From Acidobacteriota bacterium (lineage in GTDB: Bacteria > Acidobacteriota > Blastocatellia > RBC074), in NCBI GenBank assembly GCA_016715865.1, contig JADJXM010000001.1, forward strand, positions 417,572-481,571: a DNA stretch of 64,000 nt, read 5' to 3'. Position 1 is the stretch's first letter. Each line of letters begins with the position of its first letter. The notes under the pieces were generated by a model. The model searched no databases. It worked only from the letters and a program-made list of their open reading frames with translations, and was not told the DNA's origin. The translations under genes and the position numbers were made by a program. Positions 50,715-56,700 of this stretch are shown here, piece by piece.

Positions 50715-53700
50715 TCAGCAGCAGTTCGGCGGAAAGATCGGGATGATCAGTTTGGCAGCGCTGCTTAAACTCAGTTTATGCAGGTTATGGGCGCCGTTAA
50801 AGGCGTTACTGCTCGAGATCACATTTGGATTGTGATTGATCGTCAATCCTAGAATCCCACCCGCTGATTCGTCGGCCGCCCAGAACTTCATCCATCCGCT
50901 GCGTCCGCTTGGAATATGAGTCTCATATCGCGGCACGGTTCGTGGGAAGGTGCTGGAGAGCGAAGACCGAAGCTGGCATGCGTTCTGACTGAAGGCGAAG
51001 CTCAACGCTGCCTCAGTATCGTTGTAGAGCAGACCTGTTATTGATCCGAGCCCGTTCAATCCGATCATTGTATTACCGCCAATCCGATCGAGGACCAGCA
51101 TTGTGTCATTCCCCTCAGCCCTGCTGGGCAGGTTGTCGGCGGAAAGAGCTCTCGGCATCCGGCTATAGCTGGAGCCGTCGAAATTAAGAGTGGCCGTCGA
51201 GGATTGATCATTACTGCTGGTCGGGTTTTGTTTCAACGCAGAAAATGCCTCGGCGCTGATGCTGCCCCTGTGACCAGAGCTGAACTTGAACTGTTCATCT
51301 CCGACCAGGCAGTTGAAGAGAACCGGGATGCCTGTTTTGCAATCGACAGCCACTGCGATCAGGTAACCCGTGATATCAGGGTCGAAATCCGAGATCACGA
51401 AACTGGTTGTCTGATTTCTGGTCAGGCAGACATATGAATCGGCGATCGTACAGGTCGCCCCGTCGACGAAGAACATGTGAACTGAAATGTCCATCGTCGG
51501 GCTGACATTTGTCATTGTAATCCGTGTATTTTGCGTGTTCGGGTTGGTCGAGCTCGAAGTATACAACGGGAAGACGAGAACCGATCCGGCTGTCTGATCA
51601 CTCCCCTCAGTCGTTGCAGGGAATGGCCGTCCAGGACCTTTGGGCGATGTGAAGGTGACGCAAGCGAAATCATCCTCGGCAGGATTCCTGTTTCCGGGCG
51701 TCGAATCGGGATCGAAAGCTTCCGATTCGAATATCTCGGCGCAATTGAATGATGCCTCGCCTCCCGCGGTGATCATTACTGTGATCGTCAGAGTCGCCTG
51801 TGTATTTGGCTGAAGGGATCCCAGGACCCACTTGCCGGAGTTCTCATCATAAGCGCCCTGACTTGCATTTGAAGTGACAAAGTTCAGGCCCGGAGCCAAC
51901 AGGTCCTCGACAACCACACCGTGCGCTATGCTCGGCCCGGTATTGCGAACAGTTATGGTGAAGATCACATTCGATCCGATCTCCGGTTGCAGGTTGTTGA
52001 CGGACTTGCTTAGGGATAGATCGGCGCATGCACTGAAAGTAATGACTACAGTGTCATTTGTAGCGCCGCATGCGCCAGGAGGATCGTTCGTCGTTAATGT
52101 CAGGGTTACAGATCCATTCAGCCGTTCGGCAGCTGTTGGTACGTACCGTGCACTGAGCGTATTAGCATTTGGTTGAAAGGTTCCTTGTCCGCCGCTCCAG
52201 ATCGCACTTGTTGCAACTCCGCCGATCGATCCGGCAAGCTGAACCGAGGTGGCGCAGGCCGATACCGTCTGATTCGCACCAGCATCCACCGAGGGTTGGT
52301 TGTCGATACTGAGAGTGGTTGACTTGGTGACCGAACCGCAATTGCCGCTGACCGTCACCTCGACGGTGTGAGCGCCGACGCTCAGGCTTGTGGTATCGAT
52401 CGAGTTGCTGTTTGTAGCGCCGGGAATCGGATTGCCGTCGAGCTTCCAGGCATAAGTGAACTGGCCGTTGCCGCCCGAAGCGGTTGTCGAGAAGTTTGCC
52501 GTCGCGCCCTGGCAGACGGTCTGCGCCGCGAGCGCAGTCGCCGCAGTGTTGGCCTGAACGGTCAGTGTCGCCGATTTTGTGACGGAACCGCAATTGCCGC
52601 TGACCGTCACCTCGACGGTGTGAGCGCCGAGGCTCAGGCTTGTGGTATCAATCGAGTTGCTGTTGGCAGCGCCGGGAATCGGATTGCCGTCGAGCTTCCA
52701 GGCATAGGTGAACTGGCCGTTGCCGCCCGAGGCGGTGGTCGAGAAGTTTGCCGTCGCACCCTGGCAGACCGTCTGCGCCGCGAGCGCAGTCGCAGCAGTG
52801 TTGGCCTGAACGGTCAGTGTCGCCGATTTAGTGACGGAACCGCAATTGCCGCTGACCGTCACCTCGACGGTGTGAGCTCCGATGCTCAGGCTTGTCGTAT
52901 CGACTGAATTGCTGTTGGCAGCGCCGGGAATCGGGTTGCCGTCAAGCTTCCAGGCATAGGTGAACTGGCCGTTGCCGCCCGAGGCAGTGGTCGAGAAGTT
53001 CGCCGTCGCGCCCTGGCAGACCGTCTGGGCTGCAAGGGCGGTCGCCGCAGTATTGGCCTGAACGGTCAGAGTCGCGGATTTGGTGACGGAACCGCAATTG
53101 CCGCTGGCCGTGACTTGGACGGTGAGAGCGCCGACGCTCAAGCCGGCCGTGGCGATGGCGTTGCTGTTGTCAGCGACGGGAATCGGGTTGCCGTCAAGCT
53201 TCCAGGCATAGGTGAACTGGCCGTTGCCACCCGAGGCAGTTGTCGAGAAGTTCGCCGTCGCTCCCTGGCAGACCGTCTGGGGGGAGAGTTCGGTCGCGGA
53301 TGTTCCGGCTTGAACCGTCAGTGACGTGGATTTGGTGACGGAACCGCAGGCTGCCGTGACCGTCACCTCGACGGTGTGAGCGCCGAGGCTCAAACCGGCG
53401 GTGGCGATCGAGTTGCTGTTGGTCGCACCCGCTATCGGACTGCCATCCAGTTCCCATGCGTAGCTGAAAGGGCCAGTGCCTGAAGCCGTGGTCGAGAAGT
53501 TCGCGGTCGCGCCCTGGCAGACCGTCTGAGGGGAGAGTTCGGTTGCGGATGTTCCCGCCTGAACGGTCAGTGTCGCTGATTTGGTGACGGAACCACAGGC
53601 TCCCGTGACCGTCACCTCGACGGTGTGAGCGCCGAGGCTCAAGCCGGCGGTGTCGATCGAGTTGCTGTTGGTCGCCCCGGGAATCGGATTGCCGTCAAGC

Positions 53701-56700
53701 TCCCACGCGTAGCTGAAAGGTCGCCGCCCGGAAGCGGTGGTCGAGAAGTTCGCGGTCGCGCCCTGGCAGACCGTCTGAGGGGAGAGTTCGGTCGCGGATG
53801 TTCCCGCCTGAACGGTCAGTGACGTGGATTTGGTGACCGAACCACAGGCTCCCGTGACCGTCACCTCGACGGTGTGAGCGCCGAGGCTCAAACCGGCGGT
53901 GGCGATCGAGTTGCTGTTGGTCGCCCCCGCGATCGGCGAGCCGTCAAGCTCCCACGCGTAGCTGAAAGGTCCCGTGCCTGAAGCCGTGGTCGAGAAGTTC
54001 GCCGTCGCGCCCTGGCAGACCGTCTGAGGGGAGAGTTCGGTTGCGGATGTTCCGGCCTGAACGGTCAGTGACGTTGACTTGGTGACCGACCCGCAGGCTC
54101 CCGTGACCGTCACCTCGACGGTGTGAGCGCCGAGGCTCAAACCGGCGGTGGCGATCGAGTTGCTGTTGGTCGCACCCGCGATCGGCGAGCCGTCAAGCTC
54201 CCACGCGTAGCTGAAAGGGCCAGTGCCTGAAGCCGTGGTCGAGAAGTTCGCGGTCGCGCCCTGGCAGACCGTCTGAGGGGAGAGTTCGGTTGCGGATGTT
54301 CCCGCCTGAACGGTCAGTGTCGTGGATTTGGTGACCGAACCACAGGCTCCCGTGACCGTCACCTCGACGGTGTGAGCGCCGAGGCTCAAGCCGGCGGTGG
54401 CGATCGAGTTGCTGTTGGTCGCCCCTGCGATCGGCGAGCCGTCAAGCTCCCACGCGTAGCTGAAAGGTCCCGTGCCTGAAGCCGTGGTCGAGAAGTTCGC
54501 CGTCGCGCCCTGGCAGACCGTCTGAGGGGAGAGTTCGGTTGCGGATGTTCCCGCCTGAACGGTCAGTGTCGTGGACTTGGTGACCGACCCGCAGGCTCCC
54601 GTGACCGTCACTTCGACGGTGTGAGCGCCGAGGCTCAATCCGGCCGTGGCGATAGAGTTGCTGTTGGTCGCCCCTGCGATCGGCGAGCCATCCAGTTCCC
54701 ACGCGTAGCTGAAAGGTCCAGTGCCTGAAGCCGTGGTCGAGAAGTTCGCGGTCGCGCCCTGGCAGACCGTCTGCGGGGAGAGTTCGGTTGCGGATGTTCC
54801 CGCCTGAACGGTCAGTGTCGTTGACTTGGTGACCGAACCACAGGCTCCCGTGACCGTCACTTCGACGGTGTGAGCGCCGAGGCTCAAGCCGGCGGTGGCG
54901 ATCGAGTTGCTGTTGGTCGCCCCTGCGATCGGCGAGCCGTCAAGTTCCCACGCGTAGCTGAAAGGGCCAGTGCCTGAAGCCGTGGTCGAGAAGTTCGCGG
55001 TCGCGCCCTGGCAGACCGTCTGCGGGGAGAGTTCGGTCGCGGCAGTGCCAGCCTGAACGGTCAGTGACGTTGACTTGGTGACCGACCCGCAGGCTCCCGT
55101 GACCGTCACTTCGACGGTGTGAGCGCCGAGGCTCAATCCGGCGGTGGCGATCGAGTTGCTGTTGGTCGCACCCGCGATCGGCGAGCCGTCAAGCTCCCAC
55201 GCGTAGCTGAAAGGGCCAGTGCCTGAAGCCGTGGTCGAGAAGTTCGCCGTCGCGCCCTGGCAGACCGTCTGCGGGGAGAGTTCGGTTGCGGCAGTGCCAG
55301 CCTGAACGGTCAGTGACGTGGACTTGGTGACCGACCCACAGGCTCCCGTGACCGTCACTTCGACGGTGTGAGCGCCAAGGCTCAATCCGGCGGTGGCGAT
55401 CGAGTTGCTGTTGGTCGCCCCTGCGATCGGCGAGCCATCAAGCTCCCACGCGTAGCTGAAAGGGCCAGTGCCTGAAGCCGTGGTCGAGAAGTTCGCCGTC
55501 GCGCCCTGGCAGACCGTCTGAGGGGAGAGTTCGGTTGCGGATGTTCCGGCCTGAACGGTCAGTGACGTGGATTTGGTGACCGAACCGCAGGCTCCCGTGA
55601 CCGTCACCTCGACGGTGTGAGCGCCAAGGCTCAATCCGGCCGTGGCGATCGAGTTGCTGTTGGTCGCTCCCCGCGATCGGCGAGCCGTCAAGCTCCCACG
55701 CGTAGCTGAAAGGGCCCGTGCCTGAAGCCGTGGTCGAGAAGTTCGCGGTCGCGCCCTGGCAGACCGTCTGAGGGGAGAGTTCGGTTGCGGATGTTCCCGC
55801 CTGAACGGTCAGTGTCGTTGACTTGGTGACCGACCCGCAGGCTCCCGTGACCGTCACCTCGACGGTGTGAGCGCCGAGGCTCAAACCGGCGGTGGCGATC
55901 GAGTTGCTGTTGGTCGCCCCTGCGATCGGCGAGCCATCAAGTTCCCACGCGTAGCTGAAAGGTCCCGTGCCTGAAGCCGTGGTCGAGAAGTTCGCATTGG
56001 CGCCCTGGCAGACCGTCTGCGGGGAGAGTTCGGTTGCGGATGTTCCCGCCTGAACCGTCAATGTCGTCGACTTGGTGACCGACCCGCAGGCTCCCGTGAC
56101 CGTCACCTCGACGGTGTGAGCGCCGAGGCTCAAACCGGCGGTGGCGATCGAGTTGCTGTTGGTCGCCCCTGCGATCGGCGAGCCATCAAGTTCCCACGAA
56201 TATGTGACTGGATCATTACTTGAAACAGTCGTCGAGAAGTTTGCGGTCGCGCCCTGGCAGACCGAGGCCGATATCAAATCAGTAGCGTTTATGAAACAGA
56301 CTGGTGTTACTACAACATTTGTATTCGTTGGAGAGATCGTATCACCCTGATAGGTCGCAAAATTACTTACGCTTGTGACATTACTTGGAAATGGATTGTT
56401 AACAGTCACCTGAAAACTGACTACTGCCGATTCACCGGCATTGATTGTTCCGCCTGGCTCGCCGGGACTATGAACCTCTATCGCTGATGTATAAGGCATA
56501 GAGGGGCCAGCTGTATCAGCAACAGCTGCACCGTTAAGCGTTGTAGTTCCCGCAACATACGTTGTATTTGCCGGTATGGAATCTACCAGCGTCATATTTG
56601 TGGCTGGTGCATTACCGGAATTGGCAATTGTGATTGTATAAGTCAGCGTTGCACCCGGTGAAACTGTGCCAGTCGGGCTGACTGCTTTGGATGAGATTAA

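Follow-up and report, generated by a model that had tools for sequence, protein, structure and literature searches.

The DNA analysed here, a window of 64,000 nucleotides (nt) from an Acidobacteriota bacterium (assembly GCA_016715865.1, contig JADJXM010000001.1, positions 417,572 to 481,571), carries on its minus strand, from 57747 to 50715, a giant gene with a long internal repeat array that is interrupted by a single extra base. Judged by its sequence, the gene is an ordinary member of the giant repeat-stalk class of large secreted surface proteins, here from an uncultured Blastocatellia-like acidobacterium. Its span of 7033 nt is 3n+1, and two overlapping minus-strand open reading frames (ORFs) of 769 and 1658 amino acids (aa) together cover the array. 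Deleting one base at 55668-55672 yields one ORF of 2343 codons with one terminal stop, in agreement with a first-pass annotation of this DNA which had proposed that a single-base insertion splits a frame of about 2340 aa in two. The extra base is most likely an assembly error that was never corrected or else a null mutation of very recent date, and not a genetic switch. The restored product runs from a predicted signal peptide through an N-terminal domain, a CLIPPER/DUF11 domain, 16 PKD units, a PKD-like domain and a second CLIPPER/DUF11 domain to a C-terminal module of 310 aa. The parts of the gene are as follows (the slash in the signal peptide marks the predicted cleavage).

50715..57747, minus strand: reconstructed gene, 2343 codons plus stop once one base is taken out
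55438..57747, minus strand: upstream ORF of 769 aa, with the signal peptide, the N-terminal domain, CLIPPER 1 and 2.4 PKD units, then 77 out-of-frame codons
50715..55691, minus strand: downstream open frame of 1658 codons, with the rest of unit 3, units 4-16 and the C-terminal region, lacking a signal peptide
57649..57747, minus strand: predicted Sec signal peptide, MSCQINLTRSHLKLALWLTLIAIAIAIGDVSA/AEK, read by eye from the translation
56698..57465, minus strand: N-terminal domain (about aa 95-350), a putative functional "head", conserved in a few acidobacterial relatives (P0002-P0009)
56317..56691, minus strand: CLIPPER/DUF11 domain 1 (aa 353-477), matching PF01345 at 33.7 bits (aa 359-477; cutoff 24.6) and TIGR01451
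53274..56262, minus strand: type-A PKD units 1-12, 12 x 249 nt and 83 aa each, except that unit 3 has 250 nt
55764..55515, minus strand: unit 3, 250 nt, every other type-A unit having 249 nt
55663..55675, minus strand: frameshift site in unit 3, GTCGCTCCCCGCG on the plus strand and CGC GGG GAG CGA C on the coding strand
52266..53273, minus strand: type-B PKD units 13-16, 4 x 252 nt and 84 aa each
52062..52283, minus strand: PKD-like domain after the array (about aa 1822-1895), a weak K319L-like PKD match (E = 0.0094, below cutoff)
51699..52022, minus strand: CLIPPER/DUF11 domain 2 (aa 1909-2016), matching PF01345 at 102.3 bits (cutoff 24.6)
50718..51644, minus strand: conserved C-terminal module of 310 aa (aa 2035-2343), ending in FPPNCC, all-beta in an AlphaFold2 (AF2) model

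Read by eye, the N-terminus has basic residues, the hydrophobic stretch LALWLTLIAIAIAIG and then VSA/AE, and an AGGAG at 57755-57759 lies 8 nt upstream of the ATG at 57747. Within the gene, Tandem Repeats Finder reports a single array (52324-56264, period 249, 15.8 copies, 91% matches, score 5323), and its 15 start-to-start spacings, in register throughout, are 249 apart from three of 252 and a single one of 250. The motif VCQGA, which recurs in the corrected translation, was used to set the unit borders and gives 16 units on the minus strand (56262..52266). The first-pass annotation was thus right about a strong tandem coding array inside a giant gene, although it had counted about 15 units and given them a period of 264 bp and 88 aa, where 12 units have 249 nt and 83 aa and four have 252 nt and 84 aa. 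Its description of the units as Cys-containing immunoglobulin (Ig)-like modules also holds: a query fragment with two units matches Pfam PKD (PF00801) at 39.6 bits (cutoff 23.5) and PKD_4 (PF18911) at 39.1 bits (cutoff 27), and each unit has two Cys (VCQG ... GxCGS), which might form a disulfide within the domain. The I-set, Ig_3, PKD_6 and BiPBP_C profiles match the units weakly as well, so that their subfamily assignment is loose. Like other bacterial PKD domains (PF00801/PF18911), the 83/84-aa units score above the gathering threshold, and kin units occur in metagenome-assembled genomes (MAGs) of Blastocatellia and Pyrinomonadaceae; the two-Cys pattern is a variant that sets them apart.

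The units are nearly identical as protein, with 96-100% identity among the peptides of units 2-10 and 12, but diverged as DNA. Within type A, the 12 units share 85-98% of their nucleotides (mean 92.7%); within type B the figure is 78-94%, and between the two types it is 74%. Most unit pairs fall short of the earlier figure of more than 95%. Units differ at about 7% of bases, 927 of the 1199 pairwise base differences (77%) fall on codon position 3, and Nei-Gojobori estimates give a synonymous divergence (dS) of 0.21-0.25 with a ratio of nonsynonymous to synonymous divergence (dN/dS) of 0.05-0.10. Neighbouring units resemble each other little more than units far apart do (93.9% versus 92.5%), and all four gametes are present at 93 of 171 informative site pairs. 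Further, unit 11 (53523-53771) is a type-A unit with a type-B patch (NPIP...ID), whose left junction spans the 3 nt by which the types differ in length, is out of register and gives GRRP in place of GTGP; by its sequence, this patch is a visible gene-conversion scar. As the differences are mostly synonymous and mosaic, they argue for an array that is old, selected and shuffled, and against the very recent expansion that had been suggested before. By these patterns, purifying selection keeps the peptide constant, and short gene-conversion tracts have reshuffled the silent sites, which have also drifted. Concerted evolution, the other explanation once offered, survives as patchy gene conversion and not as homogenisation. 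The GC content of third codon positions differs along the gene, at 0.77 in the array (52266-56262), 0.465 in the N-terminal part (56263-57747) and 0.60 in the C-terminal part (50715-52265), with 0.56-0.70 in other genes of the window; this could reflect GC-biased gene conversion among the repeats or a gene of mosaic origin.

The interruption lies in unit 3, where GTCGCTCCCCGCG occurs once, at 55663, while the other units carry the 12-nt GTCGC(C/A)CC(T/C)GCG. One base too many is found at the C4 run 55669-55672, with a T at 55668, and with one base removed the peptide of unit 3 is IAGATNSNS, exactly as in the consensus. The coding strand of unit 3 has ATC GCG GGG A GCG ACC, and the units closest to it read ATC GCG GGG GCG ACC (unit 10) and ATC GCG GGT GCG ACC (unit 9). 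The simplest change is an A inserted into the G5 of the unit 10 allele, and one extra G before a GGA codon is the alternative. The insertion is the sole lesion in the gene, and the 1658 downstream codons are open with the same purifying-selection signature. A single lesion followed by undecayed codons means that the change is either not real or very recent.

Surface proteins are typical targets of phase variation, and homopolymer phase variation of such proteins is known from Neisseria, Haemophilus and Campylobacter. A functional on/off device here could be slipped-strand mispairing at the G/C run, a programmed +1 frameshift at GGG-A or a recombination switch, although we regard any such device as very unlikely. 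As in contingency loci, a 1-nt length change sits by a G/C run inside a surface-protein gene. Known contingency tracts, however, have about 7 bases or more, whereas the run here has 4 (C4/G4 at 55669-55672); no long homopolymer or short-unit tract was found at the site of the length change, and the equivalent G runs of 4-5 bases in all other units are in frame. The change differs from contingency loci also in not being a pure run-length change and in being known from one assembly. With a run of only 4 bases and an inserted A as the simplest change, the slipped-strand switch of the first-pass annotation finds no contingency tract to act on. For a programmed frameshift, tRNA-Gly on GGG could, as read from the sequence, re-pair on GGA in the +1 frame and restore the consensus frame. 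Known +1 sites such as prfB have a slow or stop codon after the site and a Shine-Dalgarno-like element spaced upstream. These hallmarks are absent here: GCG GGG AGC continues with an ordinary Ser codon and no stop, and inspection of the sequence upstream of the site found no Shine-Dalgarno-like element at the right spacing. Both slipped-strand switching and programmed frameshifting were rejected on the anatomy of the site.

Conservation in homologues is a further hallmark of programmed sites; no homologue with the same frameshift was found in scans of genomes and metagenomes, in which no relative's sequence covers unit 3. The genome scan returned only two relatives, with contigs ending at or before the array. 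In one of them, contig L001, unit 1 is in frame (GCA GGC GCG). A metagenome scan with the sequence around the site and a variable gap gave 0 matches, as did one for relatives of the N-terminal domain, and the Logan contigs L005-L007, from a relative with 94-96% identity, already end short of the ABC-F gene, without extending to the target gene. Exact look-ups of the 769-aa ORF, of the protein P0001, of P0206 (a protein of the same MAG described below) and of a 128-aa neighbour hit no indexed contig, and no second assembly of the site was found.

The leading explanation of the extra base, to which we assign a probability of roughly 0.6, is an uncorrected consensus indel in a long-read MAG assembly, which was among the options of the first-pass annotation as a "sequencing error". 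The contig has 626,479 nt and belongs to MAG IPM55 (neighbouring proteins IPM55_01670 to IPM55_01790). Another MAG whose locus-tag prefix, IPM66, is close by consists of one contig of 6.33 Mb, a sign of long-read assembly. We take this accession and locus-tag series to be that of the activated-sludge Nanopore MAGs. For the latter, CANU assembly was followed by polishing with Racon, then twice with medaka and once with Racon on Illumina reads (PMC8012365). A consensus error would persist where short-read polishing is unreliable because the array units resemble each other. The case resembles residual indels in the repeats of such Nanopore MAGs (PMC8012365), being an isolated 1-nt indel by a short G/C run, in a multi-copy repeat and on a very long MAG contig.

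Frame breaks also affect another repeat array in this MAG, on a 190-kb contig outside the window. P0206 (IPM55_18220), a 220-aa "hypothetical protein", is an internal piece of that PKD array: its units are 77% identical and match PKD, it starts inside a unit, two units are undecayed, and its last ~50 residues, rich in Arg, translate the next unit in a wrong frame (score 62 out of frame versus 23 in frame). Its first residues also look locally out of register. Frame breaks thus seem, from these two sequences, to recur in the repeat arrays of this assembly, and the broken P0206 array favours an artefact. The likeness to residual Nanopore-MAG indels ends with the rest of the window, which has no obvious frameshifts, and the platform of the IPM55 MAG is presumed. 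Pervasive frameshifts as a sign of poor consensus were considered and rejected, as no other large gene in the 64-kb window is visibly split; the large non-repetitive or more divergent genes of 1792, 1736, 1419, 1050, 891 and 766 aa are intact. Intact large neighbours include a 1736-aa RHS-repeat protein (11488-16698, plus strand) and a 1050-aa TPR-CHAT protein (41296-44448, plus strand). The overlap of 19191..21146 with 20644..22944 was likewise rejected as a frameshift, being a spurious ORF over an E1/E2 pair.

Failing a consensus error, the extra base would mark a very recent loss-of-function allele, genuinely present in the organism or its dominant strain, and thus an incipient pseudogene; this is a serious but clearly less probable explanation. 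It gains from the state, in relatives, of the gene and of its adjacent paralogue, which lies upstream of the target gene together with these features:

58238..63616, minus strand: adjacent paralogue of 1792 aa, MBK9312975.1, sharing its C-terminal 527 aa at 62% identity with no gaps
58179-58209: terminator-like hairpin with a 12-bp stem, following the paralogue
57852..57879, minus strand: promoter-like hexamer pair, a consensus match only, inside the 490-nt AT-rich spacer upstream of the gene

Head and repeats of the paralogue differ from those of the target protein, and the hairpin and the AT-rich spacer with its promoter-like site lie between the two genes. Contig L001 comes from a close relative (N-terminal domain 87% identical, flanks with 86-92% nucleotide identity), in which the paralogue is deleted down to its last ~40 nt; the giant genes are thus gained and lost between close relatives. 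A comparison of L001 (9351-9404) with the window (58283-63802) places the last ~13 codons of the absent 1792-aa paralogue (EMIIPVFPPNCC, then the stop) beside shared upstream sequence. The L001 record, CAZBPH010000080.1, is titled "uncultured Heliobacteriaceae bacterium" despite matching this acidobacterial window, probably because the MAG carries a wrong taxonomic label or the contig was binned wrongly. In a more distant orthologue (N-terminal domain 72% identical; L004 2961-2975, L003 3087-3101), an in-frame TAG replaces the Trp codon of SAIWSGGQGTF, a conserved Trp of the PKD-like domain, found in the window protein and in its paralogue alike. Two independent assemblies from different samples, one of them a MEGAHIT contig, carry the identical TAG; on the sequences, the same gene family has thus been disrupted independently, by a nonsense mutation. 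This orthologue has one Ig-like repeat and ~1050 aa in all, compared with the 16 PKD units of the window gene.

A real null allele also draws on the form of the insertion, which is no plain homopolymer extension of the nearest units, and on the absence of other broken large genes from the window, which indicates a low general rate of indel errors. Against it stand the single lesion with 1658 undecayed codons downstream, the position of the site in the part of the window where short-read polishing is least reliable, and the second array of the same assembly, which breaks frame as consensus errors do, with an abrupt out-of-frame switch and undecayed units. If the null allele were real, its product would be a secreted N-terminal fragment of 769 aa without the C-terminal module and without most of the stalk, and attack on the surface protein by phages or predators may have favoured such an allele.

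Several points weigh against a consensus error, even as the preferred explanation. From the assembled sequence alone, error and real mutation are not separable, and IPM55 is only presumed, from its accession and locus-tag series, to belong to the Nanopore project. The insertion is not a simple change of homopolymer length with respect to the closest units, and the family is truly disrupted in nature, by the TAG in the 72%-identical orthologue and by the deletion of the paralogue in the close relative. As to function, adhesin and stalk are roles suggested by architecture only, with a head domain that has no usable model.

A real frameshift could also be part of a recombination switch, in which the array would serve to repair or loop out the defective unit through gene conversion or unequal exchange with the 11 units nearly identical to it, and reversible inactivation would be recurrent in these Acidobacteria. 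The mosaic units show that gene conversion operates in the array, which makes repair from a neighbouring unit mechanistically possible, but we give this form of switch hardly any credence. If it were true, the nonsense allele of L003/L004, the broken P0206 array and the deletion of the paralogue in L001 would be the same selective turnover.

Mis-assembly of the array, with a wrong copy number or unit order and the frameshift marking a false join, is unlikely. The first-pass annotation saw a high risk of copy-number collapse or expansion, and short-read MAGs of relatives do break here, with the L001 contig stopping 182 nt into unit 1 and L002 inside the N-terminal domain, before the array; half of all 31-mers in the array are non-unique. 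The risk is nevertheless lower than had been assumed. The longest stretch that any two units share exactly is 130 nt, and no 141-mer of the array occurs twice, so that long reads or a large-k assembly can resolve it. Each unit has its own pattern of silent substitutions, and a 4-kb array inside a 626-kb contig is consistent with spanning long reads. The extra base does not lie at a unit boundary, the sequence is in register within unit 3 on both sides, and the flanks equal other units exactly over 101 nt (55468-55568 equals unit 10 and 55718-55818 equals unit 9). A false join was rejected, since the site is inside a unit with its flanks in register.

Whatever its origin, the extra base has consequences for the public record. 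MBK9312974.1 (651 aa, "DUF11 domain-containing protein") starts at an internal Met of the 769-aa ORF; the preceding accession, MBK9312973, belongs to the ABC-F gene, and none exists between the two for the 1658-codon frame. One extra base thus leaves a 651-aa N-terminal fragment as the only record, and ~70% of the 2343-aa protein, including the whole stalk and the C-terminal module, has no protein entry. Judging by this split record, protein databases probably hold too few of the repeat-rich surface genes of long-read MAGs, or hold them in truncated form. Elsewhere in the window, between 6435 and 34653 (IPM55_01670 to IPM55_01750), sixteen locus-tag steps stand against fifteen protein accessions and a tRNA scan found none; the deposited annotation thus has one more non-protein locus there, possibly another pseudogene call.

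Long repeat stalks of this kind are familiar from SasG, Bap, LapA-like and MpIBP-type proteins. By analogy with such fibrillar adhesins, the PKD array would be a rigid spacer holding one end of the protein at a distance from the cell. DUF11, now renamed CLIPPER, is an isopeptide-stabilised, CnaA-like stalk domain typical of fibrillar adhesins, with a Lys-Asn isopeptide pair and a catalytic Asp that are not found in all DUF11 domains (PMC12617251). The gene has two NCBIfam TIGR01451 matches (52.2 and 50.7 bits), and a search of CLIPPER 2 against the sequences of the Protein Data Bank (PDB), 9IFR included, returned nothing at E <= 0.01. The window protein shares with the fibrillar adhesins surveyed for CLIPPER/DUF11 (PMC12617251) its length, a tandem Ig-like stalk (16 PKD and two CLIPPER/DUF11 domains) and a distinct domain at either end, it is encoded beside a paralogue with the same C-terminal region, and its putative signal peptide would be a further likeness. 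It differs from them in having no recognised adhesive head or anchor, in repeat DNA that is ~7% diverged, mostly at silent sites, and not near-identical, and in its host, an uncultured acidobacterium.

The two ends of the protein matched no adhesive family. The N-terminal domain has no Pfam or NCBIfam match, and its AF2 model, built from 10 sequences, has a predicted local distance difference test (pLDDT) score of 55.5 and is unusable. The C-terminal module has no Pfam, NCBIfam or PDB sequence match, and its all-beta AF2 model (pLDDT 92.9) has no whole-domain fold match in the PDB; no ligand-binding domain was identified in either. Pfam and NCBIfam scans for an anchor or sorting signal gave no match to LPXTG, the C-terminal domain of the type IX secretion system (Por_Secre_tail), PEP-CTERM, OmpA-like, autotransporter or type I secretion profiles. 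Of the "giant adhesin" named in the first-pass annotation, the giant, repeat-rich, secreted surface protein stands, with no binding domain identified, and "adhesin" is a reasonable label suggested by its architecture.

The C-terminal module is also present in the paralogue (58241-59167, minus strand), and it has 397 homologues at 50-63% identity, mainly in MAGs of Blastocatellia and other Acidobacteria. These occur as stand-alone proteins of ~330 aa or behind DUF11, HYR, PKD_6, He_PIG, Calx-beta and transglutaminase passengers. We therefore consider the module a candidate for a lineage-specific display or anchoring domain.

We judge the protein-identical but DNA-diverged repeats and the C-terminal module to be of more interest than the frameshift itself. 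Tandem domains that are nearly identical as protein, with their DNA diverged and reshuffled, caution against equating "near-identical repeats" with "recent expansion". Likewise, the C-terminal module may be a reasonable target for finding out how these bacteria display or anchor their large surface proteins.

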